In this document: in pieces, positions 4,687 to 35,500 of the stretch
How positions within the stretch are numbered: position 1 is the first letter of the stretch
Layout: each line of letters begins with the position of its first letter
IMG/VR virus record: IMGVR_UViG_3300032335_000697
Coordinates: 1 to 43,102 of that record
DNA: 43,102 bases
DNA from: a virus
Lineage: Duplodnaviria; Caudoviricetes
Reading direction: 5' to 3' (one strand)
Notes under the pieces: model-generated
What the model was told of the DNA's origin: nothing
The model's input: the letters and a program-made list of their open reading frames with translations, nothing else
The model's database searches: none
Made by a program: the position numbers and the translations under genes

Positions 4687-6186
4687 TTAGTAATACGCCA
4701 CTTTTTTGCGTGGCATAAATTGATCTTCTTCATCCGAGTTTAAACGGATAAATCCTCCCTGACGAAATCTTAACAAGGCTTGACTGGTGGAGTCCACAAG
4801 GTCGTCATGCTCGCCATTGGGAAAAGAAGCACATTCTTCCATCACCTCTTCCGCCCAACGCTTGTTAGGACACCAGACAAAACCTGAAGCAAACAGATCA
4901 GATATAGCGTTTACACGGGCTATCTTATCAGAGCCTTTGCTTGGTGTATATTCCTGTAATGGTATTCCCATCCTACGCATCTCATAGATGAGGGGCGCTC
5001 CTGCCGCCTTTTTCTCCACAATCAGGGCATCGGGCGTCCAATCCTTGTAAAGCTCTTGTGCTTTTTTCTTTAGTTCAGGGAACTCTAGACGGTCTTTAAA
5101 TGCGTCCAAAAGGATGATGTGGGTCGTGTCAAAACCATCGGAGTCCGTTTTATAGAAGACCCCCCATGTCGTACAGGCGGAGTAGTCCGCCCTGTTGTTC
5201 TTTTCAAAAGCCGTGTCCCAAGATTGGATAATGAACTCACAGACTGGCGGTTCGTCCTTCTCCCAGATCTGCCACATATCCCGTTTAATAATCGCCCCTT
5301 CTTCGGAGGTCGGGTTCTGCTGGTACTGGGCTTCCCATTTACTGACTGGGATCTCGTTTTTGATGGCTTCTAACTCTTTTTTGCTCCAGAACTCACTCCA
5401 TAAAGGTTTGCCTGAGGGCATGAGAGCAGGAAACTCAATCTGCTCCCAGTCGTCTCCCTCTCGTTTGATGGAGTTATTAAGGATTTGTCCTGTTAAGTCC
5501 CGCTTAGACCAGCGGGTCATCACAATAATGATGGATCCGCCAGGCTGTAGACGTTGACGAGGACCAGAAGAATACCATTCGTAGACCCTGTCGAAGACCG
5601 CAGGATTGCCTTGCATCGCCTCCTGCTCGGAATGGGGGTCGTCAATGATGAGGACATCCGCACCTTTACCCGTAACAGCACCGCCAACACCAATAGCGAA
5701 GTAATCCCCGCCTTTGTTAGTGTTCCACCGTCCCGCAGCCTTGCTGTCTGAGGATAGTTTTGTGGGAAAGAGGGCTTGGTAGTCTGGGGTCGCTACAAGG
5801 TTCCTGACCTTACGACCGAAGTTTGTCGCCAATTCTGCTGTATGGGCAGTCTGAATGATTTTCTTATGTGGAAACTTCCCTAGATACCAAGCGGGAAACA
5901 GATAGGAAGCAAACTCCGACTTAGTATGGCGGGGAGGCATATTGATGATCAGTCGCTTTAAAGACCCATTAGCGACTCGTTCAAAGGCGTCCGCCATGTC
6001 TTTATGATGTTTCCCAGCAATAAAGGCAGACCACATCTCTTTGACAAAGGGCATGAAGTTTTGCCTGCATTTCTCCTTCTTGTCCTCTTCTAAAAGCTTT
6101 TTAATCTTAGGGATCTGAGGGGAGCCTTCAGGCAGGTGATCCAATAGATTACGATACTTCCTAATTTCTTCTTCAGTAAGAATCAC
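4687..6186 (-). CDS. terL: Terminase large subunit
   Basis: MPPRHTKS Walker A, LIIDDP Walker B, QSWDTA and HDDLVDS nuclease motifs. Confidence 0.95.
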   Translation of the reverse strand: MILTEEEIRKYRNLLDHLPEGSPQIPKIKKLLEEDKKEKCRQNFMPFVKEMWSAFIAGKHHKDMADAFERVANGSLKRLIINMPPRHTKSEFASYLFPAWYLGKFPHKKIIQTAHTAELATNFGRKVRNLVATPDYQALFPTKLSSDSKAAGRWNTNKGGDYFAIGVGGAVTGKGADVLIIDDPHSEQEAMQGNPAVFDRVYEWYSSGPRQRLQPGGSIIIVMTRWSKRDLTGQILNNSIKREGDDWEQIEFPALMPSGKPLWSEFWSKKELEAIKNEIPVSKWEAQYQQNPTSEEGAIIKRDMWQIWEKDEPPVCEFIIQSWDTAFEKNNRADYSACTTWGVFYKTDSDGFDTTHIILLDAFKDRLEFPELKKKAQELYKDWTPDALIVEKKAAGAPLIYEMRRMGIPLQEYTPSKGSDKIARVNAISDLFASGFVWCPNKRWAEEVMEECASFPNGEHDDLVDSTSQALLRFRQGGFIRLNSDEEDQFMPRKKVAYY

Positions 6187-6413
6187 AGGGAGGTCATCTT
6201 TTGAATGGTTTTATCGATAGGCTCAACAGACCTGACTTTGTGGGGGTCAAGCTTTAAGAAACCCATGTCTTTTAGTCTATGGACTAGTCTATGGATATTG
6301 GCTTTACTCTTCAGGTTCAATCCTGTGGCTATGTCCACATAACTAGGGGAAAACCCTTTGACCTTGATGAAGTCCTCAATGTACCGCAACACTTCCATCT
6401 GACGTTCTGTCAC
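6183..6413 (-). CDS. LexA-type winged-helix DNA-binding protein, N-terminal domain only
   Basis: MTERQMEVLRYI...GFSPSYVDIA...LKSKANIHRLVHRLKDMGFL...RSV matches the LexA N-domain; no peptidase domain. Confidence 0.8.
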   Translation of the reverse strand: MTERQMEVLRYIEDFIKVKGFSPSYVDIATGLNLKSKANIHRLVHRLKDMGFLKLDPHKVRSVEPIDKTIQKMTSL

Positions 6414-6873: not shown

Positions 6874-6896
6874 CTGGAAATTTGCATAGGGGGGGA

Positions 6897-6912
6897 TGTT
6901 TCACGTGGAACA
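6897..6912. promoter_or_regulatory. parS: parS centromere-like site
   Basis: TGTTTCACGTGGAACA (reverse complement TGTTCCACGTGAAACA) fits the chromosomal parS consensus TGTTNCACGTGAAACA exactly; intergenic. Confidence 0.8.
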
Positions 6913-7151
6913 ACTGCAACACAAGTTGGGGTAATCACACACCGTATGTGAAGCGTGAAAACGTGCTTTCCCCCGTTTCATTATACATAGAGAACGTTCG
7001 TATTGGTATATGAGTGTAGAGGAATGTGTGGATCACAGTGTAAGTACACGTAGGACGCATACACGCAAACAGCGGGGGTCGGGTGCGGTGGGGTCGAGCA
7101 AGGCACGTTTAAACAAGGGGCAGGCATCGAGCCAGTTCTCTACGCAAGACG

Positions 7152-8715: not shown

Positions 8716-8726
8716 ATGGAGGCTTT

Positions 8727-8885
8727 ATGCAAAATCAATTCCCAGTAGTGCGTGTTGAGATCGTTAATCGCTTTGCCCATTACGGCAATGATGTCGATTC
8801 ATTTAGAACAGTTTATTTTGATGAGCCGTATCAGCCTGATACCAAGGTTGGTGCTATTCCTAATAACTTCTTCTTTTCACTCTAA
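8727..8885 (+). CDS. Small early hypothetical protein (52 aa)
   Basis: GGAGGCTTT-ATG at 8727; in frame with track ORF 8697-8885. Confidence 0.55.
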   Translation: MQNQFPVVRVEIVNRFAHYGNDVDSFRTVYFDEPYQPDTKVGAIPNNFFFSL

Positions 8886-8899
8886 CCAAAGGGGGCTTT

Positions 8900-9374: not shown

Positions 9375-9436
9375 GACCTATCCTTATGCCCTTTGGGGCA
9401 TAGGGATGTGCCTTATAACTTTTAACAGGAGGGCTT

Positions 9437-10130: not shown

Positions 10131-10148
10131 TTTTTATAGGGGCTTAAA

Positions 10149-11618
10149 TTGAACAATCTTAATATCGAAAAGCAAGTACCACTCATCCCTCTCGCACAAT
10201 TGAATGGTGTGCTTGAGCATCATGGTCTCGTAGGCTTTGCACCACGTGACAAGGCACAGGCTATCGCTCAGGTCATTGCCTTGATCAATGCGGGTAAGGT
10301 GACCATCGATCAGGTCAAGGCTACCAAACCATCGGTTGCCACTGGCTTGCCAACTGACGTTGCCGATCAAATCACCAAGGCACAGGCTCAGATTAATGAG
10401 AGCCTGTCCAAGGTTGAGAAAGTGCGTGAGGTTGCGAATCGTTCGCTCGATCAGTTGCTGATTCAGTCTACCGCTATCGAAAAGAAGTTCGATGACCTGA
10501 CTGCCCGTTTAAACGTCAAGGTAGATGCAATCGAAAAGCCTGATGCCAAACTGATTGCCGATACCCTACGTGCTGAGGTGTCCAAGCAGTTCGAGAAGTT
10601 CCGCAAAGCCACCCCAGTGGAGGTCATTGCTGAGGTTGCTCAGACTGTGGCGGTCACTCGTAAGGTCAAGGTCAAGGACGTGTTCGATGGTGTCCTGTCC
10701 TATGAATACAATGGCGAGACGATTGATTTCTCCGAGTTGGAGATCGAGGTGTTCGATGACCCATCCGCTCCCGCTCGTGTCGCTGACTACGTGTTTGCAC
10801 CACGTCACTTGCACCAAGCCTTGGTTGCACTGGACGATGCTCTGCCTGATAACACATGGCTTGCGGGTGAGCGTGGCACTGGCAAGACCGAGTTCGTTAC
10901 CCAGTTAGCCTCACGTCTCGGACGTAGATTGTTTCGTGTGAATTTTGACGAGGCGATTGAGCGTGCCGACTTCATCGGTGCTAACAGTATCGAGAATGGC
11001 AGTGTCGTGTGGAAAGCGGGTGTCATCACTCAAGCGATCCAGTACACAGGTGCTATCGTTTTAGTTGACGAGGTTGGCTTTGCCCGCCCGCAGTCAATTG
11101 CGATTCTGCATTCCCTCTGTGAGCGTAGCCCGCATCGTTCGATTGTGATCAGCGAGACAGGTCAACGCATCCCTGTTGCTAGTCATGTTGCGTTCTTCTG
11201 TGCTGACAATAGCAATGGTCATGGTGATACGTCAGGTAACTTTGCGGGTGTGCGTGATCAGAACACTGCGTTCATTGATCGGTTCGGTTACACGCTCCGC
11301 TTTGAGTACTTGCCTGAGAATCAGGAAGTTGCACTGGTATCGAGTCGCACTGGTTTAAACATCGATGCATCTACTGTGCTGATTCGCTTTGCCAATGTGG
11401 CTCGTGAGAAAGCACGTGCGGGTGTGCTGACTCAGCCACCTAGTCTTCGCCAGTTGTTTGCTTGGGCTAGAGCAGTGAGCAAGGGCGTGCCAGTTGGTAT
11501 CGCCTTTGAGAATGCGATCATCAATAAGTTTCCCGCTGATTGCGAGGCTGAGTTACGTGGTGTGTTTTCTGCGGTGATCGATGTCGCTAATTTCAAATCT
11601 TTTTTGGGAGGTAAGTAA
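10149..11618 (+). CDS. MoxR/CobS-like AAA+ ATPase with N-terminal coiled coil
   Basis: GERGTGKT Walker A, VLVDE Walker B, NTAFIDRF, SLRQL; TTG start with AGGGGCTTA. Confidence 0.88.
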   Translation: MNNLNIEKQVPLIPLAQLNGVLEHHGLVGFAPRDKAQAIAQVIALINAGKVTIDQVKATKPSVATGLPTDVADQITKAQAQINESLSKVEKVREVANRSLDQLLIQSTAIEKKFDDLTARLNVKVDAIEKPDAKLIADTLRAEVSKQFEKFRKATPVEVIAEVAQTVAVTRKVKVKDVFDGVLSYEYNGETIDFSELEIEVFDDPSAPARVADYVFAPRHLHQALVALDDALPDNTWLAGERGTGKTEFVTQLASRLGRRLFRVNFDEAIERADFIGANSIENGSVVWKAGVITQAIQYTGAIVLVDEVGFARPQSIAILHSLCERSPHRSIVISETGQRIPVASHVAFFCADNSNGHGDTSGNFAGVRDQNTAFIDRFGYTLRFEYLPENQEVALVSSRTGLNIDASTVLIRFANVAREKARAGVLTQPPSLRQLFAWARAVSKGVPVGIAFENAIINKFPADCEAELRGVFSAVIDVANFKSFLGGK

Positions 11619-13877: not shown

Positions 13878-13898
13878 TCGTTTAAACAAGGGGGGCTT

Positions 13899-14189: not shown

Positions 14190-14198
14190 GGGGCTTAT

Positions 14199-14580: not shown

Positions 14581-14594
14581 ACGTAGGGGGGCTT

Positions 14595-14684
14595 ATGAAA
14601 AATTTCGTTGATCGCTTGTTTGATGTTGCGTTGTATTTGATGTTGATTGCATTCGTTGCTAACTTAATTAGGGGGGCTATATGA
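14595..14684 (+). CDS. Small membrane peptide (29 aa)
   Basis: GGGGGGCTT-ATG; hydrophobic VALYLMLIAFVANLI; ATGA overlap with the next gene. Confidence 0.5.
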   Translation: MKNFVDRLFDVALYLMLIAFVANLIRGAI

Positions 14685-15955: not shown

Positions 15956-17641
15956 CTAGAATGCCTCTTGTTCAAAGTACGTACCTGTGACCTTGTCGTA
16001 ACCCAAAGCAGTTTCCCCTTGAGTACCCACCCACCGATAGCGACACTTCCAAACCGCAATCTCTACGTTCTCCTTGGTGCGATGCACTGTGATCCCGCAG
16101 TCTGCCTTTGCCCACCATGCCATAGATCCTGATATAGCCATGCCATCAGGACGTGGTAAATCCATCCCTGAGCGTGTTATTTTGCTTGGATGGGCTACGA
16201 ACCATACATGAACCCCATAAGCCTTAGCAAACGCTTGTATGCGGGTCAACATCCCCGATATAAATTCTGTCTCTGCCTGACCGCCTTTGTTGTCGATGTA
16301 GTTGTAAGGATCGATAACAAGACCTCGGATTCCCATGCGAACCACCGCAACCTTTGCCCGCTCCAAGATTGATTCAATCGTGGCGGGTTCAACCCCCTCG
16401 GAATCTAAGAAGAGGAAATGCTCTTCCACCCATTTAAATGCCTCGTCCTTCTCGTCCTGAGTCATTCGCTTTGTGCCATCAAAGAACCGCTTTTCCTTGT
16501 AGATCTCCATAAGGCGGGAGATATGGATCTCAGGCTGATTCTCAAACGAGCAGACCGCAAACTTCCAATCGTGATTCCTTCCCAAGTTGACCATCATCTG
16601 ATCCACAAAGTTGGACTTACCGCATGATGGGTATCCAGTGACGATGGTTAGTTGACCTTGAGCCACTGTGTAAATACCATCCACGTTGGAGTACCCAGTA
16701 GACAAGCCCTTCCCCGTCCCCTTCCCCCATAGGTCGTTTAAACGATCAGCAAACTTACTGGCGGACGATAAACCCGCAACAGGGTAAGGCTCTGCATCTT
16801 CGATAATCTTTATGACCAGTTCCCTCCCCTGATCAAGGAATGCCTCGTTCAAATCTTTGTACGTAAATTTGGCGATTCGGCATTTGTCCTTCCCGATCCT
16901 ACGTGCCAACTCCTCAGCCAAAGCCTGACCCGCAGAGTCGGTGTCAGTCGCTATGGTGACGTGAGGTACTTTCTCAAGCACGTCAAACGCATTCCACACA
17001 AAAGAAAACTTCTTATCCTCCGAGGCATCAATCTTTCCATCCGAGACCTTCATGGGTGCGCCACTTGGCACAGAAAGCACGTTGGTCAAGCCACACTCAA
17101 GCAAGGTCAAGGCATCAATCTCACCCTCAACAATGATTACTGGCTTGGTCGTATCAATATGGTCTATGCCGAAAAAGTCGTTTGCACCGCCCACGTCTTG
17201 CGTAAAGTCCTTCGCCTCGATACTCCGATACTTGGCAGACACGTAGACCCCGTTACGGAAATATGGGAAGCCGATTGCGTCTGTCTTCTTGTTTAAACGC
17301 TGAAAGTATTTTTCGGCAGGGAACAACTGCATCTTCTCTGCCGTGTTGGCAGAAATACCACGAGATTTTAAAAAGTCAAAATGTTTGTTTTCTAGTTTTG
17401 TTGTTTCTAAATTTCTAATGGGATGCACATTACTCTCCGAGTGTCTGTAAGATTTTGTTTTAAATGGAACCGCCCCGCTGATTTGGCAGTGTTGGCAGTA
17501 ATAGACCAAAGCATCTTCCTTGCGGTCAATGTTTAGTTCTTTTAAATGAGATTTTTTTCTGTCCTGAGAACAATTCGGACATATGGTACGTAGATGATTA
17601 TCCACGTGCAATGAAGACACAAACTCCGCTACCGCATTCAT
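15956..17641 (-). CDS. T7 gp4/Twinkle-like primase-helicase
   Basis: CPNC...YCQHC zinc finger; TOPRIM (VEGEIDAL, DTDSAG); TGYPSCGKS Walker A; VIDPY, VAHP. Confidence 0.92.
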   Translation of the reverse strand: MNAVAEFVSSLHVDNHLRTICPNCSQDRKKSHLKELNIDRKEDALVYYCQHCQISGAVPFKTKSYRHSESNVHPIRNLETTKLENKHFDFLKSRGISANTAEKMQLFPAEKYFQRLNKKTDAIGFPYFRNGVYVSAKYRSIEAKDFTQDVGGANDFFGIDHIDTTKPVIIVEGEIDALTLLECGLTNVLSVPSGAPMKVSDGKIDASEDKKFSFVWNAFDVLEKVPHVTIATDTDSAGQALAEELARRIGKDKCRIAKFTYKDLNEAFLDQGRELVIKIIEDAEPYPVAGLSSASKFADRLNDLWGKGTGKGLSTGYSNVDGIYTVAQGQLTIVTGYPSCGKSNFVDQMMVNLGRNHDWKFAVCSFENQPEIHISRLMEIYKEKRFFDGTKRMTQDEKDEAFKWVEEHFLFLDSEGVEPATIESILERAKVAVVRMGIRGLVIDPYNYIDNKGGQAETEFISGMLTRIQAFAKAYGVHVWFVAHPSKITRSGMDLPRPDGMAISGSMAWWAKADCGITVHRTKENVEIAVWKCRYRWVGTQGETALGYDKVTGTYFEQEAF

Positions 17642-17661
17642 ATTTTAAGCCCCTCTAAGTT

Positions 17662-17937: not shown

Positions 17938-18174
17938 AAAAATAATCTTTTTCTATATATATATACATACTGCCCTCTTGGGGAGGGCAGACCTAGCCTA
18001 AACTGGTCTGCCTTCACAACCTATGCCCACATTGGTATCGGTTGACCCGAAAGACTTTTCGTGCAAAGGGTTCTTTCTTCGCCACCCTTTTCTGATCTCT
18101 AATGCACTAACCCTAGTATCAGCAATCCACGTCTCACCCCTAGTGTTTTTCATCGCTGAGTGAAACAGGGTTCA

Positions 18175-18338: not shown

Positions 18339-18367
18339 AAAAAAACGGGGGAGTCGGATTCTCCCCC
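18339..18367 (-). terminator. Intrinsic terminator, minus strand
   Basis: GGGGGAG-aatccga-CTCCCCC-G followed by a T-run on the minus strand. Confidence 0.7.
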
Positions 18368-18437
18368 AAAGTTCACCTCACATGAACACCAATAATTTTC
18401 CTTAAAAGCCGTAGCAAAACAAGGAGAACGTTACTGT

Positions 18438-18467
18438 TTGACAAACATTTTTCATGTGGTGTAATAT
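18438..18467 (+). promoter_or_regulatory. Sigma70 promoter of the small RNA
   Basis: Perfect TTGACA at 18438; TGTAAT (16-nt spacer, TGn) or TAATAT (18-nt spacer). Confidence 0.7.
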
Positions 18468-18470
18468 ATC

Positions 18471-18546
18471 CCTGTGTTCATGGACTAAGCCCCCTATACA
18501 CAGACCAGTAGGTCGGAAAGCCACCCTTAAAAAGGTGGCTTTTTTT
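18471..18546 (+). ncRNA. Candidate trans-acting antisense sRNA (anti-RBS/anti-start codon)
   Basis: Bounded by promoter and terminator, no ORF. CTGTGT/ACACAG stem with loop TCATGGACTAAGCCCCCTAT, complementary to the recurrent AGGGGCTTA..ATGA initiation regions. Confidence 0.65.
18517..18546 (+). terminator. Intrinsic terminator, possibly bidirectional with rusA
   Basis: AAAGCCACC-loop-GGTGGCTTTTTTT. Confidence 0.85.
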
Positions 18547-18901
18547 ATGCTAGTGCGGATACTTCTATCTCACACCTAGGGTTCTCCTTATCCAACCCCC
18601 AGTAGATGTGTTTCTCTTTGACCTGTCGGTCGTTCTTATATGCCACTTCCTGTAGCAAATCCAGTATCAAACTTTCGTCTAAATCAGGTCTACGTGATGC
18701 GTACCAAATGCGAATGGTTACCGCCACGTCACATTCAAAAACTTCGCTTGGAGCGATAACGCATTGCTGTTTAAACGCTTTAGCATATGCCAATGCCTTT
18801 GCAGACTTGATAAACATTGGCTTTCCACGCACGTAGACCATTTTCCGTGAGTTAGCCTTACTTGCGGGTTCACCAAATATTTTTAAAAATAGTGTTTGCA
18901 T
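18545..18901 (-). CDS. rusA: RusA-family Holliday junction resolvase
   Basis: GEPASKAN, RPDLDE, NDRQV, PRCEIEV. Confidence 0.8.
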   Translation of the reverse strand: MQTLFLKIFGEPASKANSRKMVYVRGKPMFIKSAKALAYAKAFKQQCVIAPSEVFECDVAVTIRIWYASRRPDLDESLILDLLQEVAYKNDRQVKEKHIYWGLDKENPRCEIEVSALA

Positions 18902-18924: not shown

Positions 18925-18944
18925 TTAGTCATAGGAGGGCTTAA

Positions 18945-19826
18945 ATGAAGATCACAAACAAATTCAATGTACCAGAAACATTAGTCGCACTCGCTACTAG
19001 AGACTACTATAGCAAGGGCAAGTCAGACTACTCAGTCACAGAAATCATCTCCCCGCCTCGCATACAGAGGCTCAGACGAAAGCATTTTGAAGAGATAGAG
19101 CAAGATGTATCCGATATGCTTTGGATGCTCCTAGGCACCGCTTTGCACGTTGTAGCCGAACGTTCTGAGGTGTCGGGTCATACCAATGAGGAACGTCTCT
19201 CTGCGGGCATCGATGGCATCATCCTGTCGGGAGCGATTGACCTCCAAAAGGACGAGGCAGATGGCATCACCATTACAGACTATAAGTTCACGTCCGCATG
19301 GGCATTAATGAACGACAAGCCTGAGTGGGAACAACAACAGAATATCTATAAGTACTTGGTCGAGCGGGTCAAGAAAAAGCCTGTCAAGGGTTTGAAGATC
19401 TGTGCCTTGATCCGAGATTGGTCTAGGCGGGATGCTCAAAACAAGCCTGACTATCCACAGGCACCTATCCAAATAGTTGACATACCAATGTGGACATTTG
19501 ATCGTACCGAGGCTTTTATCAAAGAACGAGTCGAGATGCACAGGGATTCCAAGGTCAGTGCCGATTGGGGCGAGGAATTGCCCCCTTGTACTGATGAGGA
19601 GCGTTGGGTTAGACCAACCACGTATGCGGTCAAAAAGGATGGTCGTAAGACTGCAATTCGTGTGTTTGATACACAAGACGAGGCAGATGCCTTGTTAAAA
19701 GAAATGCCTGAGAAAGACAAAGGCTTTATAGAGATCCGTAAGGGTGAGGCAGTACGTTGTACAGGAAACTTCTGCGGAGTATCGCAGTGGTGTAGTCAAT
19801 TTCAAAACCAAAAGGAGCAGTCATGA
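18945..19826 (+). CDS. PD-(D/E)XK exonuclease (RecB/Cas4-like)
   Basis: GTALH, SGAIDL, TDYK, QQNIY; C-terminal Cys cluster. Confidence 0.8.
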   Translation: MKITNKFNVPETLVALATRDYYSKGKSDYSVTEIISPPRIQRLRRKHFEEIEQDVSDMLWMLLGTALHVVAERSEVSGHTNEERLSAGIDGIILSGAIDLQKDEADGITITDYKFTSAWALMNDKPEWEQQQNIYKYLVERVKKKPVKGLKICALIRDWSRRDAQNKPDYPQAPIQIVDIPMWTFDRTEAFIKERVEMHRDSKVSADWGEELPPCTDEERWVRPTTYAVKKDGRKTAIRVFDTQDEADALLKEMPEKDKGFIEIRKGEAVRCTGNFCGVSQWCSQFQNQKEQS

Positions 19827-19966: not shown

Positions 19967-20187
19967 GAACAAATATGGTTAAGAAAAAACAACCCGCCTT
20001 AAAAAGTATCCCCCTAGTAACAGGGCAAGTAAGCGAAGAACTTGGCATCACTATTAGCAAAGAATTTATTATTCGGAAACTTAAAGTAAAACCTATGCTT
20101 ACCACTAAAACAAGTGCGTATTGGGATGACATCAGCCTAATAAAGGCTCGTTTAGGGGCTTACTTCACAAAAGCATCAAAACTTTAA
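19960..20187 (+). CDS. Basic hypothetical protein (start probably ATG at 19975)
   Basis: ORF track; fills the operon gap. Confidence 0.5.
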   Translation: MLRTNMVKKKQPALKSIPLVTGQVSEELGITISKEFIIRKLKVKPMLTTKTSAYWDDISLIKARLGAYFTKASKL

Positions 20188-20201
20188 AGAAAGGGGCTTA
20201 C

Positions 20202-20816
20202 TTGAAAGTCTGTAGAAAACTAGTCGAGGTTCGTAACGAACTTCAAACAATGCCACTAAGCAAATCAGGTCATAACAAATTTGCGGGATATAAATACTTT
20301 GAATTGGGTGACTTCTTGCCCGCCATTCAAGGTTTATTTAAAAAGCATGGCTTATGCGATGTGATCTCGTTTACACAAGACCTTGCAACGATGGTGGTGT
20401 ATGACATCGAAGATGGTAGCAGTGTAACGTTCACCTCACCTATGGGTTCTGCCCAGTTAAAGGGATGTCACGAAGTGCAAAACATTGGTGCGGTAGAGAC
20501 GTATCAGCGTAGGTATCTGTACGTCACTGCCTTAGCCATTGTTGAGCATGATGCATTGGATGCCGTAACAGGGTCGCAACCAGTAGAAAGCAAGCCTGTT
20601 GAAGTTAAGGCAAAGCCCCAAGAGCCTGAGCAAAGCCTAGATGCCCTCGCAGAAGTACTTATTACCTTTGGTGATACGTGCGAGAGCCTTAAGGAACTCA
20701 GCAGTTTTTGGAAGAAGAATCAATCAGGCATCGATCAGATGAAGATCAGCAATCCTGATTTGTTCAAACAAGTGCAGTCTGCGTTTGCACAGTACAAATC
20801 TAAATTTAAGGAGTAG
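20202..20816 (+). CDS. erf: ERF-family single-strand annealing protein
   Basis: KSGHNKFAGYKYFEL and GAVETYQRRY motifs. Confidence 0.85.
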   Translation: MKVCRKLVEVRNELQTMPLSKSGHNKFAGYKYFELGDFLPAIQGLFKKHGLCDVISFTQDLATMVVYDIEDGSSVTFTSPMGSAQLKGCHEVQNIGAVETYQRRYLYVTALAIVEHDALDAVTGSQPVESKPVEVKAKPQEPEQSLDALAEVLITFGDTCESLKELSSFWKKNQSGIDQMKISNPDLFKQVQSAFAQYKSKFKE

Positions 20817-24451: not shown

Positions 24452-24678
24452 ACAATGAACCAGTAGCGTGGATGAAGACACTACCTGATGGAACAATCTA
24501 TGGATTTGGGCAAACAAAAACTAACGATGAGTTTGATATTCCACTCTACACCCATCCAGCAAAGACACTAACAGATGAGGAAATAAAAGACTTTATCGCA
24601 ACATTCCCTATTATATTTACACCTGATGATTTAGTTATTTTTGCTAGAGCAATACTAAGAAAGGCACAAGAGAAATGA
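24448..24678 (+). CDS. Hypothetical protein (EPVAW...PLYTHP...LRKAQEK type)
   Basis: In frame with track ORF 24430; start at the ATGA overlap. Confidence 0.7.
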   Translation: MNNEPVAWMKTLPDGTIYGFGQTKTNDEFDIPLYTHPAKTLTDEEIKDFIATFPIIFTPDDLVIFARAILRKAQEK

Positions 24679-24833
24679 GAAAGGTGAGCATACGAACAGT
24701 TGAAAATACTATTGGGCTGGCACGTAGTGTTGCTAATGGAACAACCAAATTTCCTTTTATGGGCTATTGCGCAGACCTGATGGAAAAGATGCTAGAAGAG
24801 ATTAAACAGGCAAGAAAGGCACAAAAGAAATGA
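24675..24833 (+). CDS. Small hypothetical protein (52 aa) ending RKAQKK
   Basis: Translated by hand; lies between junction repeats. Confidence 0.6.
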   Translation: MRKVSIRTVENTIGLARSVANGTTKFPFMGYCADLMEKMLEEIKQARKAQKK

Positions 24834-25012
24834 CAGCGTTTAAAGAGTTTCCTGTTGGCACTTTTGTCATGCGGTTTTATAAGACCGACCATGTGTGGAC
24901 TTGCACAGTCACAGAAGATATGTTGGATGAAGTAATCAAGATAGCCAAGCCGTTATCAGAAGAATACATTGAATCGGAATGGGCTAGATTAAGAAAGGCA
25001 CAAGAGAAATGA
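24830..25012 (+). CDS. Small hypothetical protein (60 aa) ending LRKAQEK
   Basis: ORF track; lies between junction repeats. Confidence 0.65.
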   Translation: MTAFKEFPVGTFVMRFYKTDHVWTCTVTEDMLDEVIKIAKPLSEEYIESEWARLRKAQEK

Positions 25013-25913: not shown

Positions 25914-26011
25914 TTACATTTTTCCTTATACTTTTTGCTGGCATTGGTCTAATGCTTTGTATTTTTCTTTTTGTTGTTTTTTTACTTATTTATCTTGGAG
26001 ATCGTAAATGA
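25910..26011 (+). CDS. Small membrane peptide (33 aa)
   Basis: GTGA and ATGA overlaps on both sides; fully hydrophobic. Confidence 0.45.
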   Translation: MITFFLILFAGIGLMLCIFLFVVFLLIYLGDRK

Positions 26012-26274
26012 ATGAACCAATACCATTTGCTGGGTGGGTGCAGTACAGTGATGACACCGTTATGAAAAAAGAAGACTTAGTGAACCATCCTAAGCATTAC
26101 ACGTCACACCCATCAGGGGTGGAATGCATTCAGGTCACAGAACATATGGGTTTTAACCTTGGTAATGCCGTGAAATACATATGGCGGGCAGACGAAAAAG
26201 GCAACGCAGTCGAAGACTTACGTAAGGCTGTTTGGTACATCAACCGTGAAATAGCGAAGCGGATCAAAGTTTAA
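26008..26274 (+). CDS. DUF3310 (SaV/T7 gp1.7-like) protein
   Basis: VNHPKHY...ECI...GNAVKYIWRA...EDLRKAVWY. Confidence 0.85.
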   Translation: MNEPIPFAGWVQYSDDTVMKKEDLVNHPKHYTSHPSGVECIQVTEHMGFNLGNAVKYIWRADEKGNAVEDLRKAVWYINREIAKRIKV

Positions 26275-26276
26275 AC

Positions 26277-26552
26277 ATGGCTACCAAGGCGGAGAAAGAG
26301 CGGTATGGAAAAATGGCAAGACTCGGATGCATCCTGTGTTGGCATCTTGGATACGAAGGAACACCCGCAGAAATACATCACATTAGAAGAGGTGGTAGAC
26401 GAGACAATGCTCCTGTTATCCCGCTATGTCCTGAACACCACCGAGGAAATACTGGTATTCACGGACTTGGACGCAAAGCATTTGAAGCGAAGTATGAGTT
26501 ATCTGAGGAGGACTTATCCGTATTCACGGAACATCTCCTAACGAATGCCTAA
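26277..26552 (+). CDS. Ref/DUF968-like zinc HNH nuclease
   Basis: GCILC...AEIHH...IPLCPEHHRG...GIH. Confidence 0.75.
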   Translation: MATKAEKERYGKMARLGCILCWHLGYEGTPAEIHHIRRGGRRDNAPVIPLCPEHHRGNTGIHGLGRKAFEAKYELSEEDLSVFTEHLLTNA

Positions 26553-29500
26553 CTTATCTGCCGCTTTAACCCCTTGTTGGGCAATGATGTTGTACTGTGC
26601 CGTCAGTTTATTGATAAGTTCCCTACGCTCTTCAGGGGTTCTGCTTTGGTCACCCTTAACAATTTCAATCTGTCTACGAACCTTAGTCATGTTCTCGCTG
26701 AACTTTCTAAGGGTTGGTGCTGAGGCGATGAGCATCTTCTTCTCCTCGTCCTCCACCATTTCTCTAGCCTCTTCCAAGCGACCTGAGTTCTTCAGTTCGT
26801 TAAATCCTTGGGCGGTACGGTTGGCAGTCTGCTGAATGTCGAAGAAGTTAGCTACCGCTTTATCTGCGTTAGGGTCAGTCATAAACGCTTTGAAGAATGG
26901 CTGTTTCTCTAAATTTTTGGCAGCACCTTCTGTTCCTTGGAGCGTGTAAACGAGTTGATCAGCCAGACCAAACATAAACGTACCAGCTTCAGCAAAGTAG
27001 CCTTGGACTAAGTTATCAATCTTAGATGGGGACAGACCAACAAATCCGAGTCCAGCCCCGCTGAGGAACTTAGCCGTTTCACTAGCGTTACGTCCACGCA
27101 TCTCTACAGGAAGTCTAGATTCGCCAATACTTTCTACTGGGTTACCAGTAAAGAAGGAGTAGTTAACAATCGTCTCTAGGGCGGGTTTAATAGCCTGTGG
27201 CACTGGTACACCGCCTGTTGGGAGGTTATGTAACAAGCCATCTTTATAGGCTTTAATCATCTCTTTGCCGTTGTCATTGCCGTAGGCATAGCGTAGGGCT
27301 ACCTCTGGAACGACTTTGAATAGGAAGCCAACCTCGTATGGGACAGGAACTTTAAGAAATCCTTCTGAAATTGGGTTCTTGATTAACCAATTGTTATCTT
27401 TAACGTAGTTAGGTTGTTTTTGATACTCCTCATCATCTTGCATCAACATAGCGTAGGCGACTGAAGAGCCAAACATTAACGCAGCTCGCTGTTTAAACAG
27501 CTTCTTAGCTGCTTCTTTCTCCGAAGCTGGCAAGTTGTAACCTGTCGCTGCACGATATACGGTATCCAAGGAAGTGATGGATGCCGACAAGAATGGGATC
27601 ATTTGACGAGCGGCATTCAGGATCTTGGAGTTTCCGTGTACTAGGAAGTTAATAGCCTCACGAGACTTCATAACCGCATAATTAACTGCCTCTTCTTCAG
27701 TCATGCCTTTATTCAAAGCGGACTGCTTTTCCTTCTTGAAAATAGCTACACGGGTTGCCGCATCGGATGCCTCATGCATCAGCATTAGCTTGTGGAACAG
27801 CTTCTGAACGTTGCTTGGGTCAACCTTTTCTGTGCCAACTTGCTCAAGGAATGTTTGGAGATCAAGGGTGCTGTCGTACTGTCCAATAACCCCACGGGAG
27901 GCAAGAATCTTAGCCTCTTCCGAGTTCTTACGTAGGACGTTGATGTATTCCTTAGCAGAGTGGAATGGAGTAACAATACCGCCATTAGCTACGATGCTGG
28001 CATGGATTGGATCACGGATTAACTGACGTATCCAGAACATGGGGTTCAACAAAGCACCCGCACGGAGAACGTTAGTAGCCCCGCCAAAGAACTTTAAGAC
28101 AGGTCCAAGCTCATAATGCATGGACTCAAAGGCGGCAAGGTCAGTAGCGTTATCCACAACAACGTGAACCACACCCTTTGAATCTGCTAAAGGATTGGTA
28201 GGATCTTTGTAACGTAGATTAATTCCTTGGGCATCAGGATTGCCTACATCAACACCATTGCGTTTTTTGGTAGGTATTCTGGCGGCACCAGCATCAATTA
28301 ACTGAGTAATAGCGACTTTACGGACTTGGTTTTGGTAAGCACCCGCTAACATAGAAGCATATTGTTTATCAATATTTTCCCAAATATTGCGTTGTAATGG
28401 AACAGGATTGCCTTCTTCATCCAAAACAACTTTACCGCTCTTATCACGCAAGTACTCAGCACCCTCTAGTTTATGGACTTTAGGGGTAGACTTTAGACCA
28501 GACGCAGTAAAGCCTAGCTGACGCTCCATCATGGTGTCTAAATCGGTATTAGAAGCCGCTAAAGAAACGTAGAACTTCTTGGCACGATAGGTATCAGCCT
28601 CTGCCTTATCAAGTAGTCCTACGTTCTCCCAGAGGTTTATAAGCCCTGTATTGACCTTCTTCCAAATATCAAAGACTTCCTGTATTTCTGGAACATCCTT
28701 TAACTGTTGCTCTGCCCATTTAATCTGCTCTTGGGTAACCTGTTTCTCACGATTCCTGTTTTCCCCAGTCTTTGCGTTATGGATACGGTCTTCTTCCATA
28801 ATTTCTTTGCCACGCAAAGCACGAGCCACTTCAGCCACAAAGCCACGACCGCTTAGACCAGAGCCTTTGACATAGTAATTGTCGTTTAAACGGTCAGCCA
28901 GCACCTGGCTGTTGGCTAAGTTGTTAACTTCGTCTATTTCAATAATCAGGGAGCCGTCTGAATTAACGGTTGGGATACCAGTTTGCAAACCATTACGGAT
29001 TAGGTTGATGGTCTGGGCTTTAGCTCTAGCCAATAGGTCGCCACGTAGTACTCCGTTGGTATAGATTTCTTCGTTTTGCAAACGTTTTGCAAGACCAGAG
29101 TTAGGATCTATAAAGGCAATACGAGTCTTAATCCGCTCTTCAGGGTCTTTAAACATCTTAATGACACTGTTGATGGAGTCGGTAAGTCGTTTACCAGCCG
29201 TGTTGGCAGACTCTAACTTGGTATGGTTTTCTGGAGGAGCGTTAAAGGAATAGCGGATGTCCTTAGATTCTGCGGTAGGAGCAACGTTAAACGCAGACTT
29301 GATCTGACTTGAGTCATAGACCGCAAGGTTCTTTTGACCGCCTTCTTTTACATAAAAAGCATCAAAACCAGCGGCTTTAATTGCTTTTTGGAAGCGTGGT
29401 TTTTCAATTTCTGACCAATTGCCATTTCTTAAAGCACGTCTATCCAATTCAACTGCCAATGATTCAGTTTCAAGATTATTTAAAACCTCTTCAACATCGT

Positions 29501-32500
29501 TATCATTTTCAAAATCAAACGGTTTTCTAGAATAAACATATGTTGGAATGATATTGGCACGGCTAGGCAACTGCTCTCTTAATACTCTAGCCATCTCCTC
29601 CTCTGGAAGATCACCGCTTTTCTTAGCCCGTTTATCAGCTTCTTTTGCAAGTTTTTGCAACTCTTCGCTAGACAATATTTTTTTTAATTCCTTAACCATG
29701 TAGGCTTCGCTGGCATCAGTGAAACCTTCAGCAAAACGAGGGTTATCAGTTAAGAAAATAGCATTCGCTTGCTTAGGTTTAAACTCCGTAATATCACGGG
29801 CAGTGCCGTGATACATGATTTTTGGATTGCCATTCTCATCAACAATCTTAGACTTGCCTTCTATGCGGTTCATAAAGGCATCAACCTCTGGGGTGTCAGG
29901 AGCCTTTAAAGACATCTTTTTCTTAAGCGACAGAGTTCCTTTTGTTGGCTCTACTTTCTTTTCTGCCTCTGCTTCTATTTGATTTGGGTTAAGGACACGC
30001 TTTACCTTAACGCCAACAGGCTTAGGCTCAACACGACCTTCTTTGCTGGCTTGTACCAGAATGCCACGTTGCTTCTCTTCAAACTTCTTAGCCTCTGGCG
30101 GTTGTATATTCTTACCAGACCATAACGCATTGCCGTATTTGGTAGGAATACGAGCATCACTGTACATACTTTGTACTTCGTAATGATCCGCTAGTTGTTT
30201 TACAAACATAGCATCGTCTGTTAATGGATCGTAAAGAACCAACTGAGGTCCGCTGCGGTATACCCGTTTAAACCGCTTGCCAAGATCCTCGATATGCAAA
30301 ATCAGGTCTTCTAAACGCTCTTTGGTAACTTCAGCGGGTCTGCGTTTAACGTCAGTCTGCATCCTTCTAAGGATGTGGTTGGCTCCATAGCCTTGATCAC
30401 TAATGTCGTCATGCGTACCAACAGGTAGGCGGATAGGGTATTTAGCAAATGGTGCGGAACCTGGCATAAACGCTAGGTTGCCTGTGTTGTTGGGGTTTTT
30501 CTCTGAGACTAAGAACGTGGTTGGGTCTATGTTGCCCAACGCTAGAGAATACTTACTTTCAGGGGCTACTTCTTCTGCTCTAAAAGAAAATTTACCGATG
30601 GATTTAGCCTGTTCATCAATTCCTTGATCGTATTCTTTAACTTTTACACCGTCTGTTTTTGTTGGTGCCTTGTTATAGGTTGGGTCATAGACCATGAAAA
30701 CAACATCAGGCTCCCCTTTGTTAAAAGGAAGAAACACTTCTTTATCCCAGTTATCTGGTTTATATTCATCATTCCAGCCTAAACGAGCAACAATCTTGAA
30801 ACCATTGTTGTAATACAAATCTGGCAATACAGTATCAAACGCATCTAATCTTCTACCGCCTTCTTGTACTGCCAACTGCATAATTCCGTTAACGCCACCA
30901 ACGTATGGTTCTGTAGAAAATACAGAAACAATATCATCACCCTTTAAGGCAAAACCAGCTTTTCCATCTTTGGTAAGGAATGTACGCATATTTGCGTATT
31001 CTTCCTCTGGGTATACATAAACTGCCGCCCCAAATTGGGTACCTTTTTTTGATGAAGCAATAGATTTTTGAAATAATTCAGCACCGCTTGGATCTAATTC
31101 ATAAAAAGTTGGGGTATCTACATCGGCAGTTAAAAGAGCGTTTTTAAAACGAATAACAGGTTTAAATTCTGCAATTGCTTTTTGTCCTAAAACCCGAAAT
31201 CCTTTGCCATCTGTTCCGCCATTTCTCTTGTAAGCATTGGGTGTCTCTTCATTGCGTTCTCTATAGGATCGTATGATTCCCCTTGTGATGAAGTGTTTGC
31301 GTTCTTTTCCAGCAAAGCCAACATCTCTTCCTTCGGAGCCAATTTTAGAGGGGTACTTTCCAAAATCTCGTTGTATTGCTGCTGTTCTGTCTGCATATTC
31401 TTTCTCCGTAGTTGCTTCTACATCTTTAATTTTTGACTCAGGTATGCCGTTTAAACGGGCTAGTTTGGCTGCTGCGTTGGAATAGTCTGGTGCTTCATCA
31501 TCAGTATAACCTTCGCTGACATTACTTTCTTTTGCTGCATCGTACAAACGCCTTTCTGGATACCATAACAAAGCCTGCAAATCAGACATTGTCATGTTTG
31601 GGTAGCCACGTTTACGTATGCCGTCTAATATTCCTGAGAAAACCTCACGAATGTAATTTCTTTCAGCAGGACCTGCTGGTGCTTCTTTTTGTGCATCAAT
31701 GTAACCAACAAGACTATTAGATGTTTTGCGAATTGTTTGCCCAAGATCGCTTTTATTAAAAATTGATCTATTTGCGGGCTTGATTGAAGCCTTGTTAATT
31801 GCAGTAGCTAAAGCATCAATTGCTGTGTCGTTTGCAAAATCTTTTTCTGTAATGGTTTTGTTAATAACTTGTTCAAAACGTTCACGAGTTTGTTTGTTTT
31901 TTGATTCAACCAATCCTTGGATCAAATCGTTCATCTCACCACGTTTGTTACTAATGAGACGTGCGTTGTCTTCAATTAAAGAACCAGTCCAACGACCCCA
32001 AGTACGCATTAACCAACGATCCATCGTTAGTTGATCAAAAATACCGTTTAAATTAGAGAAGAAACCATTGCCAATCTTTGGTCCAAGGATGGATGCACCC
32101 AATACTCTTGTGTCAGCAAATTCACCGCCTACTTCTAAATTTGTAATTCTTTCAATTTGTTTGACCGTAAACTCAGTAGCCATGAATTTACGCATATTAT
32201 CAATGCCGTACTTCTCGGTCATCAAATTAAATAACTCTAAACTGTTATTAATGGCTTGTTGTGCTTCTCCAGCACTAAGATTGGTTGGCATCTTCCCTGT
32301 TTTTTTGTAAGCTTTGTAAGCTTGCTCTGCTAACTGGAAGTTCTTGTCAACTTTTATACCGTTAGATGTAACAGCTAATGCCCAAGTAAATGCAAATTTT
32401 GCATCTGGATCGGTTTTAATCTCTGGATGCATTAAAGCAATAACATTTAAGGCTTTGGCTACGGTTTTATCGTACCAACCTACTGCATTTGCATTGCTTT

Positions 32501-35500
32501 TTAATGCATAAATAGCATCATCTATACCAGCTTTAACTAAGTGTTTGGTAGTTTCGTCTTCTGTAGATGAGAGATCAATGCCTTCTTTTTCGGCAGCAGC
32601 CAATACTTGATCTTGAATGGCAATTTTTAAATCACGGTTGCGTTTAAACTTATCGCTGTTGTCACGGGCAAATTTAAAAATATTTTCTAAAGAAGATGTT
32701 TCCAACAATGGCTTTTCTTCTGCACGTAATGAATACTTAAACTGTGATTTAGGTGCATATACCGCATTTTTAGCCAGCACGAGCGGACCAATCTGAATTA
32801 CTTCATCGGCAGAAACAACAGGTTCGGTTGTTTTACGGTCATAGAAATAGCTATGACGCTCTGGATCCATACCAACCTGTGTCCATGCTGGGTCGTTTAA
32901 AGCCTCTTCTGCTCTTGCAACCGCTTCTTTTTCACTAATCTTTTTGTAGCTACCTTTAATGGTGGCAATTGTGCCTTTTGGCTTTCCACCAGCAATACTT
33001 GCGGCAGCTTTTTCAGACATACCAAATGTGGCATTAGTTACTGAGGCTACGCTTTCATGTCCAATCTTCTTGCCAGCACCAAATCCTGATGCTTGTTCAT
33101 GGATGGTAGGAACCCATACCCCATAACGGCTATATGCTGGAATATCTAGTCTTAAGCCAACTGGGTGACCATTCTTTAATGTCTTAGATGGAACACCATA
33201 GGTCTCTTTGTCTTCAATAGCACCTATAGCTTCTGCTTTTGTAGCTGGTTTTGGAACAAAATCATACGGCATGATTGTTTTGTACTTATTAACCAACTTG
33301 TCGTACTGTTTGGCGGTTATCTCTCCAGCCTCAAGCTTTGCCATTCCCTCTTGTAGCTCAGGAATACGCTCGGTAACCTGTTTAAAGTCCATATCAATAC
33401 GTCTTGTTTTGTCGTATTTAATGCCTTTTTCAGTTTTAACAGGCTCAAGAGTTTTAATACCACCTTCTTCAACTTTGGCAAATATTTCATTGGCGGTAGT
33501 AAAGCCTAGTTTGTTAAGGGAGTTACGTAGGGCTTCAAAGAACTTCTGTAGGCGGTAAATGATGTTGCCAATCATGCCTGCTGGCAGTTTGTTCTTGCTA
33601 TAGAAACGGAAAGCCTCGGCAATAGCCTCTTCTTGAATGTATTCGTCAAAACCTTTTAGGCTACCGTAGTCCTGTTTGTATTGATCTTGATAGCGTTTAA
33701 ACAGCCCACGATCAGTGATGAACTTTTGAATCCACTCGGACTTAGCCTTGTTTGTTAGGACTTTCCATTCGGCATCGGTAAACCCGCCAAGCTCTTTAAT
33801 AGCATGGATGGACTCATGGCGAAGTGTTCCCATGACATCTTTGGCATCTAGAGCCAATGTAATTAAGTTTTTAACGTAAGAACCGTCTGCTTTGCCGTTT
33901 TCAATGCTATCGACAATGTTTAAACCAATCTTTTCCAAACCAAAACGCTTAAGAGTTGGCATTAAAGACTTGCGGAAAGCATCTATATTCTCTGTTAGCT
34001 TCTCTTGTGCTTCTTTTTTAACAAGACCAAGCTTTTCTAAACGTTCTTCAGCACCTTCTAACCCCTGTTTGGTGGTAATTTCAATGCCTTCAGGCTTCTT
34101 ACCAGTGCGGGAGTCTAGTTCTTTTTGGGCTAGGTCTACGTAACGTTTTACTCTGCCTGTTTGCTTTTGAGTTGGAGCAGAATCAATGATCTGCTGCAAT
34201 GTCTGGTCGTTTAAACGGCTTATGCCATATGCTTCAGCCTGTTCTTCGCTGTCAAACTTAACGGTTGGCTTACCTTTTTCATAATAGGTAAACTTGTTTT
34301 GGGTCAAAGCTCTAGTACCAACAGGCACTATTCTGACTGGCTGAGTAAGTTTTTGCTGTTGTTGCCGTAATGTTGCTATTTTTTGATTAGCTTCTTGATC
34401 TTTACTATAGGCTTTGGCTGAATCAATAAAAAATTGATCTTCCGTGTCTTCTCCTAAAGACCTAGCCTTAAGCAGTGCATTTTCTCGTTGCTGAATGCCA
34501 GCCTGCAAACTGTTAATTTGTTTCTCCAAATCAACAATCTTTGCCTGACGATTTCTTTCATGTATGACCAGTTCCTCTTCTGCTTCCTCAGCAGTTTCTT
34601 TCTGGTTGATCACTCGACTGCCAGAACGAATTTCATAGAAATCAGGGGCATCTCCCTGTTTAAACGTCTCTTTACGGATGTCCATGCCGCCAGGCAGCTC
34701 TTTTCTTGGAGTGGGTTTCTGGATCATCTCTACATTCTTTTCCACACCATTGACGTTCCGAACCTCAACGATACGCTCCAAGTCACCGCTAAGGAGGGCT
34801 TGGTCTAAAAGACGTTGCTGGTCTTTCCTTCTTGTTAGACCACTATATTTCTCAATCTGCTTTAGTACGCTTTCTCTGCCGTTAGGTTTATCGCCTACTT
34901 CTGCAAACTCTTTATTGATCCCGCCTAGAGTCTTTGTATATTGCTCAGGGGTATAGTGTTTAACCGTAGTAATGCCAGCTTGTAGGACTTGGGACTCAGA
35001 CCCTACGGGAATGTTATCTAGTGCCTGCTTAACCGCCAAACGCTGGGGAGCAGACATATCCTCCAAATTACTGGTTCCAGTGGTTCTTTCTAGGAAGTCT
35101 CTAAAGCCTTGAGTATCTGTAGCAATACCACGCTGCTGGGCGGCTAAATTCAATACGTTAGGGGGTATATCGTTTTCTGCTTGAAAACCTGTCCTAGAGG
35201 CTACTAAGCGTCCTAGGACACCTTCTGCGGTCTTACTCTCCTCTGGGGTAAAGACGTCAGCCAAGTCCTCAATAGAGAAGGTCTTGCCAATACGAGCCTT
35301 ACCCATTGCCTGTCTGCGTTTATTAATCTCTGCAATTTCCTTGGCACTAAGGTCAGTGGTTTGGAATCGACCCAAAGGATTGAATAAAGGATCGTCCTCG
35401 GAAGGCTCTACGTACTTCTTGTCTGGTGCGGGTAAGGCTAGAGTCTCAGGAACACCTAATTGTTGCCGAGTTTCTTGTATCTGTTGACGTTGCTCTAAGG

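Follow-up and report, generated by a model that had tools for sequence, protein, structure and literature searches.

A conserved predicted RNA of freshwater phages with a loop complementary to tagged ribosome-binding sites of the phages' own early genes

The window, i.e. the whole stretch of 43,102 nt analyzed here, is a 43-kb phage record with a completeness of about 69%. The terminase, the portal and a polyvalent protein are encoded on its minus strand, the last of these (26538-36458, 3306 aa) carrying LPD38 and ART-PolyVal domains. AAA ATPase and VWA proteins make up an early block at 8.4-15.8 kb, and a divergent replication region contains the primase-helicase, an HNH gene, rusA, an exonuclease and an ERF gene. 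BLASTN against cultured phages returned one 69-nt match in ERF and nothing else. Since the sole related primases, in a search of 185,579 genomes, sit on two betaproteobacterial MAG contigs, one of them labelled Burkholderiaceae, the host of the phage family is probably a freshwater betaproteobacterium, judging from these two contigs. Hfq is encoded by all 16 genomes of the putative host genus. Three further features of these genomes were recorded. The palindrome GTTTAAAC is present in 38 copies in the window, as against about 2.6 expected, and in 6-47 copies in five relatives, and looks like a highly iterated site, possibly host-mimicking or linked to methylation. An upstream repeat, AAGAAAGGCACAAGAGAA-ATG, is common to three consecutive small genes (24675, 24830 and 25009; window 24655-25008), and the virion-gene region of G001, a complete relative, includes a gene for a beta-ketoacyl synthase (L211:17151-18272).

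At 18438-18546, abutting the convergent rusA gene, lies a predicted RNA unit with the following parts:

18426-18432, no strand assigned: GAACGTT, an operator-like near-palindrome just 5′ of the -35 element
18438-18467, plus strand: sigma70-type promoter (-35 TTGACA at 18438-18443, 18-nt spacer, -10 TAATAT at 18462-18467)
18473-18546, plus strand: predicted non-coding RNA of ~74 nt, from the fold and the covariance model
18473-18502, plus strand: hairpin 1, which displays the seed (predicted stem 18473-77/18498-502)
18486-18495, plus strand: seed TAAGCCCCCT, with AGCCYCC as its core in the family; antisense to the tagged ribosome-binding sites (RBSs)
18503-18514, plus strand: hairpin 2, GACC-AGTA-GGTC (84% of cells paired; two-sided change in 2 of 4 pairs)
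18517-18546, plus strand: intrinsic terminator hairpin and U-tract (97% paired; two-sided change in 6 of 8 pairs)

A preliminary description of the locus had spoken of a perfect TTGACA promoter, which is right for the -35 element at 18438, but the -10 element agrees with the consensus at only four of six positions. Moreover, a promoter scan of the window gave 17 sites as against 33.5 in shuffled sequences, i.e. fewer than chance, so that a single promoter match is weak by itself. The weight of the promoter rests rather on conservation, because a sigma70-like pair, with its -10 ending 17-34 nt before the seed, is held by 47/47 distinct homologous upstream regions (in a best-match search of unshuffled sequences), while the promoter sequences themselves diverge. 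A match of the GAACGTT/CGAACG type is present in 30 of the 47 homologous promoter regions, compared with 5% of random 77-nt windows, making it a possible transcription-factor site. From the position of the -10 element, the RNA would start at about 18473-18475. The view of the unit as an ORF-free transcript of ~75 nt ending in a terminator holds up: the predicted RNA is ~74 nt long, and the segment 18470-18548 folds into three hairpins (-26.8 kcal/mol, z = -3.77), with none of 200 shuffles being equally stable. The terminator, whose stem (18520-25/18534-39) is followed by seven T up to 18546, is evident by eye and overlaps the stop codon of rusA (18545-18901, minus strand); it was absent from the output of a simple terminator scan. 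Six RNA runs were examined, all as unstranded Logan assembled contigs, in which relatives' sequence covers parts of the region; such contigs cannot show ends, strand or level, and both the X1 contig, which ends at 18495, and the X8 contig, which spans 18489-18690, are uninformative.

Two other elements lie close by. Betaproteobacteria-1 RNA (RF02932, 68 bits), the only Rfam hit in the window, is found at 18045-18167 on the minus strand, upstream of the HNH and primase genes and about 300 nt from the predicted sRNA; it is present in 5 of 18 related loci and may be a phage replication-region RNA. That the predicted sRNA is itself Betaproteobacteria-1 RNA was ruled out, as RF02932 matches this separate element. 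The sRNA unit is without an Rfam hit at the gathering threshold, so that the Rfam check of novelty proposed in the preliminary description found no family for it. A second short unit (18340-18410, minus strand; hairpin and terminator at 18368-18346) is divergent from the sRNA promoter and lies back to back with it. Its sequence in relatives is often GCAGTTGCC-TCTCC, and in distant relatives a similar unit stands alone beside rusA.

The seed is complementary to a tag, GG[A/G]GG plus CT[T/C/A]A, which is found at early-gene starts in three transcription directions and whose 3′ half lacks complementarity to the canonical 16S rRNA end. The sites are:

8718-8725, plus strand: RBS GGAGGCTT of a 52-aa gene (8727), 5-nt match, net -1.8 kcal/mol
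8890-8898, plus strand: tagged RBS of an 84-aa early gene (8900), 9-nt match
9427-9436, plus strand: tagged RBS of a 37-aa early gene (9437), 7-nt match
10139-10146, plus strand: tagged RBS GGGGCTTA of the MoxR/CbbQ-type AAA ATPase (10149-11618), class matched in 29/31 loci
13890-13898, plus strand: tagged RBS of a 96-aa early gene (13899), 9-nt match
14190-14197, plus strand: tagged RBS of a 51-aa early gene (14199), 8-nt match
14587-14594, plus strand: tagged RBS of a 29-aa early gene (14595), 9-nt match
14672-14678, plus strand: tagged RBS of a 51-aa early gene (14681), 7-nt match
17646-17653, minus strand: tagged RBS GGGGCTTA of the primase-helicase (15956-17641), the best-conserved target, predicted net binding -13.8 kcal/mol
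18933-18944, plus strand: RBS AGGAGGGCTTAA of the PD-(D/E)XK exonuclease (18945-19826), 7-nt match, a weaker target
20193-20200, plus strand: tagged RBS of the ERF recombinase (20202-20816), lineage-specific

The start-region sequences quoted in the preliminary description are all correct, and ten of the eleven starts listed there have 7-9 nt of perfect complement; the start at 8727 has only 5 nt, and it is a doubtful target, GGAGGCTT being the variant of relatives, mismatched to the seed of this genome. A perfect complement of at least 7 nt to the 20-nt loop was found at 10 of 25 early/replication starts and at 0 of 32 middle/late starts (Fisher p = 7.6e-5), counting hand-listed gene starts that were grouped by genome position and PHROG/Pfam annotation after the motif was known. 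Only 7 of 5000 shuffled loops attain 10 matched starts. In a sliding 20-mer control, AT-rich words prevailed (a score of at least 12, like that of the loop, was reached at 82 of about 86,000 positions), and the control was excluded from the support. The sequence GGGGCTTA occurs eight times on both strands, compared with about 1.1 expected; six copies are at gene starts, one is the RNA itself and one is intragenic. The intragenic copy (20155-20162) lies within the gene before ERF, 38 nt 5′ of the ERF tag, and has no start codon after it. In the predicted duplexes the Shine-Dalgarno core is paired, and so, in many cases in this genome, is the AUG. With opening costs included, the predicted net energies range from -5 to -14 kcal/mol among the ten starts that have a match, and the net binding predicted for 8727, 20202, 18945 and 9437 is weak (-1.8 to -7.5 kcal/mol).

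Searches with the exonuclease and the primase yielded 80 and 79 viral loci, respectively, which together with one pattern scan gave 129 merged contig stretches, including the window. Homologous loci, which the preliminary description had suggested looking for, do exist: the RNA unit was identified, once per genome, in 54 related phage loci, 49 by an iterated profile and 5 by inspection, and a covariance model, R1, detects a single copy in every one of 43 sources, of which 38 had served to train it. The weakest member is L062 (E 0.51). In the inspected loci the unit adjoins a convergent rusA, either at its stop or, in some, 100-200 nt away, and one homologue is on a betaproteobacterial MAG contig, together with a matching primase tag. 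Broader scans were less productive. An exact 16-mer scan of viral contigs gave 30 loci, of which 28 are unrelated GGGGG-ACTAAG-CCCCC hairpins and only 2 are homologues; a loose promoter-plus-seed pattern gave 120 mostly chance loci, with 3 clear homologues, one of them new, among the 80 scored; and a pattern scan of metagenomes was too loose, none of 80 scored loci being homologous. The GGGGG-ACTAAG-CCCCC hairpin recurs between genes in unrelated freshwater phages (most of L003-L030) and is probably a terminator family. In one unrelated phage (L264:5176-5288) a promoter, GATTAGCCTCC and a terminator are similarly ordered, with only one tagged start nearby; it is a weak look-alike (E 0.066). 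Within the family, L133 has a second ATGAGCCTCC copy about 80 nt 5′ of the seed, upstream of the promoter and beside GAGAACGTTCTC, which is possibly a duplicated seed.

The homologues fit a structured RNA read from the plus strand. Hairpin 2 and the terminator together show 33 two-sided covarying cells, a count that none of 500 shuffles reaches, and G-U variants of the stems (9 GU at one terminator pair) are consistent with the plus strand; RNAalifold on a MAFFT alignment recovered the terminator alone. The stem of hairpin 1 is highly variable in sequence, yet it re-forms: expected pairs enclosing the seed amount to 5.05, as against 3.42 when 5′ arms are exchanged between homologues, and are higher in 32 of 44. 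Within the loop, the seed positions A, G, C, C, -, C, C are invariant (38 sequences), and nothing else is. The seed is predicted to be more than 0.7 unpaired in 29 of 44 homologues, and its mean openness of 0.70 exceeds the 0.61-0.66 of controls by a small margin. It has to be considered whether the element could simply be a favored Shine-Dalgarno sequence copied by chance, or the RBS of a minus-strand mini-gene starting at 18481, since on the minus strand of this genome the tag is followed, after 4 nt, by an ATG that opens a frame of 9 codons. Of the 54 homologues, however, 28 have no start codon at that place and the other 26 would encode unrelated peptides of 2-48 aa, so that the mini-ORF alternative named in the preliminary description fails. 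As for a favored Shine-Dalgarno sequence, the CT[T/C/A]A half of the tag mismatches the canonical 16S end of the putative host family. Host ribosome preference fails to explain the tag, because the canonical CACCTCCT end is present in 15 of 26 genomes of that family (the 16S end is absent from both MAGs with related primases), and GGGGGCTT-N0-6-ATG occurs there only about 1.7 times per Mb (119 in about 71 Mb); the same pattern is found at 3 gene starts within the 43-kb window. We regard both versions of this explanation as scarcely credible.

Loop and tags vary in concert across the family. The seeds fall into four classes, with the complements GAGGCTT, GAGGCTC, GAGGCTA and GGGGCTT, and the primase RBS, about 0.8 kb away and on the opposite strand, bears the matching class in 46 of 50 loci (22/25, 7/7, 8/9 and 9/9 when split by seed class). 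The four misses are L178, which has a G-U-compatible variant, L063, with a shortened tag comprising little beyond AGGCTAA, the tagless L064, and L182, which was counted as a miss owing to a mis-picked start although a matching tag is present. The AAA ATPase RBS, 6.5-8.3 kb away, matches the class in 29 of 31 loci, the misses being L063 and L132, and in no case does it carry another class. Some matches extend well beyond the core, e.g. GAGGCTAATCAA at the AAA start of class-A phages. Co-variation between loop and RBS motifs, a test named in the preliminary description, is thus found for both genes. Among the targets named there, the primase-helicase and the AAA ATPase are firm and conserved, but the exonuclease site matches the class exactly in only 25 of 52 loci, mostly keeping the GAGGCT core, and the ERF tag is limited to this genome and one or two close relatives. 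Similarly, the loop had been described as antisense to both the RBS and the start codon; this holds for the RBS tag, whereas the start-codon pairing (TCAT here) is not kept in the family, 28 of the 54 homologues lacking an anti-start codon in that register.

On a primase tree of 46 rows, built in quick mode, the seed changes 7 times, the primase RBS 8 times and the AAA RBS 5 times. The independent pairs agree in direction (2 for class C, 4 for class A and 1 for class G), each alone falling short of p < 0.05. Over all called starts, 8-nt matches amount to 14.7% with the cognate RNA, 8.3% with non-cognate RNAs and 0.95% in RNA-less relatives; the matrix of cognate and non-cognate classes is diagonal, with an accompanying permutation test that ignores relatedness. 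A tag at the primase, AAA or exonuclease gene is present in 46/46 RNA-bearing primase rows and in 0/20 chosen RNA-less rows. The RNA-less lineages nest among RNA-bearing ones, and RNA presence and tag presence each change 4 times on the quick-mode tree, with independent pairs too few for p < 0.05. For two of the class switches there is a path by way of G-U intermediates, along which the RNA and its targets could drift while control is maintained.

Covariation of the sites alone cannot tell RNA-RNA pairing from a site shared by a protein, and the motif might accordingly be the site of a phage protein, either a DNA operator or the target of an RNA-binding regulator, with the reverse copy serving as an operator or as a minus-strand decoy. 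Such a possibility has a parallel in the SAS repeats of mycobacteriophages (see below), for which the authors leave RNA or protein open in the part of their paper available (PMC3203893), and the window does contain a DUF3310 gene (26008-26274), a family speculated, in the accessible text of PMC11373665, to act on the SAS genes of phage Adephagia. Nevertheless, the sense copies are found at the Shine-Dalgarno position only and in coding orientation, and the lone reverse copy is in a hairpin loop between a conserved plus-strand promoter and a plus-strand U-tract. The wobble variants of the stems also fit the plus strand, and unit and tags are lost together. We therefore consider a protein site improbable, because it would not predict a reverse loop copy inside a promoter-terminator unit.

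Taken together, the comparative sequence data argue strongly for a conserved, previously undescribed phage RNA gene whose product pairs with a self-tagged early regulon, and the multi-target antisense reading given in the preliminary description is supported at that level. It appears fairly probable that this sRNA pairs with the tagged RBSs of about ten of the phage's own early genes and blocks their translation jointly, damping them as infection advances. The RNA would be made by the host sigma70 polymerase early in infection, would accumulate, possibly with Hfq, and would outcompete the 30S subunit on tagged mRNAs only, sparing the ordinary GGAG sites of late and host genes; the tag would give one RNA access to chosen genes across several operons. 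Repression is the likely outcome, and a block of initiation is presumed because the duplexes cover the Shine-Dalgarno core, as in established sRNA biology. A delay would need accumulation or regulation of the RNA, because a strong sigma70 promoter fires simultaneously with the targets. Speculatively, the timing could be set by a factor binding GAACGTT(C), perhaps a small LexA-type protein. Pairing with the tags might instead activate or stabilize the messages, e.g. by opening structure or shielding a cleavage site, and some tagged sites do pair poorly with the 16S end (the AAA ATPase, which has a TTG start, at -5.6 kcal/mol); the phage sRNA PreS, for its part, both represses and activates host genes, according to the available portion of 10.1101/2024.10.31.621285. 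We hold this to be very unlikely, as the predicted duplexes sit on the Shine-Dalgarno core and often on the start codon, where the established sRNA mechanism is a block of initiation.

The same pairing could also serve immunity or dormancy, in that a resident prophage or carrier-state genome would constitutively make the RNA, hold the primase and other early genes silent and block superinfection by phages of the same class, the seed classes being immunity groups. The promoter looks constitutive, the seeds form four discrete classes with reduced cross-matching, and a homologue with a matching primase tag is found on the betaproteobacterial MAG contig. A precedent would be c4 of P1 versus P7, as described in the accessible part of PMC12197685. 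The preliminary description had remarked that no full-length CI-type repressor is visible, and indeed the S24 domain of such repressors was found in none of 31 related records, although the window does encode a 76-aa protein with a LexA DNA-binding domain and no peptidase domain, just before the terminase large subunit (6183-6413, minus strand). Sites of the GAACGTTC type (6831, 6992) are present in the gap upstream of the LexA-type gene, and the same type flanks the sRNA promoter; a link between the protein and the GAACGTT sites at that promoter would be speculation. A tyrosine integrase is encoded by 2 of 31 RNA-bearing records (G005 and G022) and by 0 of 14 RNA-less ones. The 29 without it include two complete genomes, most of the others being fragments; among the five RNA-bearing records at least 90% complete, two have an integrase, and neither complete terminal-repeat genome does. 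In the complete G001, Pfam found no recombinase or partition family among 82 ORFs (those not exceeding 1200 aa and not crossing stretch joins). In addition, the common GGAGGCT core would cross-repress between classes, which speaks against immunity. Damping or timing of the lytic program is clearly preferred over lysogenic immunity, since integrase is rare, no S24 domain was found in the 31 records, and the ORFs scanned in G001 gave no recombinase or partition family; we consider immunity an unlikely, if not negligible, purpose for the pairing.

More distant relatives do not have the sRNA. The same spot is occupied by another short unit, which has CUCUCC and a terminator, and many early starts of these phages read GGAGAG. 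Across 26 loci, the CUCUCC unit matches cognate and non-cognate starts at 12.6% versus 7.6% (8 nt) and 2.4% versus 0.9% (10 nt), a signal of less weight, given how near the motif is to an ordinary Shine-Dalgarno sequence. From these sequences, the unit may be a second anti-RBS RNA, directed against GGAGAG starts. In the window, GCAGTTG followed by CCCCCCCTATG was observed at 6880-6920 on the minus strand, in the late-operon gap after the terminase small subunit, and CCCCCCCTATG could be a second tract complementary to G-runs, pairing with GGGGG early sites.

If the proposed regulation is true, one RNA acting over about ten phage genes would be a protein-free master regulator and would represent a new route to developmental timing or immunity, and the natural seed classes would offer near-orthogonal RNA/RBS pairs for multi-gene translational control. 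At the sequence level, and as is usual for an sRNA, the predicted RNA has its own promoter and intrinsic terminator and no conserved ORF, and its seed covaries with distant sites. The closest phage counterpart is the c4 antisense RNA of P1 and P7, which, in the available text of PMC12197685, displays its pairing sequence in a loop, acts at the RBS of one target, the ant mRNA, and has sequence variants linked to heteroimmunity. Like c4, the present RNA is phage-encoded, is predicted to act in trans and to pair by a loop around an RBS of the phage's own mRNA, and exists in sequence variants, but while c4 controls one mRNA and works via an antirepressor, a single seed loop would here have about ten direct targets in separate operons, primase and an AAA ATPase among them. 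The Rfam C4 models gave no hit at E up to 5 on the element and none in 18 related loci, and no antirepressor family was found among 63 window proteins. Other base-pairing phage sRNAs include PreS of lambda, which acts mainly on host mRNAs (10.1101/2024.10.31.621285, in the portion available). VpdS of VP882 alters host and phage mRNA levels via Hfq, and sar of P22 and OOP of lambda each act on one phage gene, as far as the accessible accounts go. To our knowledge, the phage antisense RNAs described so far target one phage gene or host genes. The literature within our scope, which takes in few subscription papers, contains no description of this RNA or of any phage multi-target anti-RBS RNA. In Staphylococcus aureus, RNAIII and RsaE occlude several RBSs by means of a pyrimidine-rich loop, both being chromosomal regulators of diverse host genes. 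The present RNA resembles them in having one C-rich anti-Shine-Dalgarno loop for several RBSs, and differs from them in being encoded by a phage and in co-evolving with a private tag that marks its own regulon.

The nearest parallel to the tags themselves is SAS (Start-Associated Sequences), a conserved extended RBS that precedes 10-19 non-structural genes (11-19 copies in cluster K), includes some bases that cannot pair with 16S rRNA, has 17-bp inverted repeats (ESAS) upstream at a subset of sites, and is known from cluster K mycobacteriophages and cluster EF Microbacterium phages, cluster K1 having in addition a single reverse copy away from gene starts; its role was stated to be unknown in 2011 and again in 2024, and no antisense RNA is proposed in the accessible parts of these papers (PMC3203893, PMC7302621, PMC11373665). 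In Adephagia (58682) and Anaya (59870) we found the lone reverse SAS to be the 10-nt loop of a long predicted hairpin, which is located in an intergenic gap right after another strong hairpin (L229 and L230, respectively). The two systems, as far as SAS is described in these sources, thus share a repeated extended RBS limited to non-structural genes and a single reverse copy, but differ in sequence, host phylum and hairpin context; in the present family one can also see a promoter, a terminator and covariation of seed and targets. The tag is a different motif from the 13-bp SAS consensus, and the likeness is best regarded as analogy and not homology, because model R1 detected nothing in the stretches from Adephagia and Anaya at E up to 1. 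There seems to be an even chance that many phages run their early regulon in this protein-free manner, by a private RBS tag and one loop RNA, that the sister clade does so with CUCUCC and GGAGAG, and that this would explain the SAS repeats, the SAS puzzle being cheaply testable in cultured mycobacteriophages.
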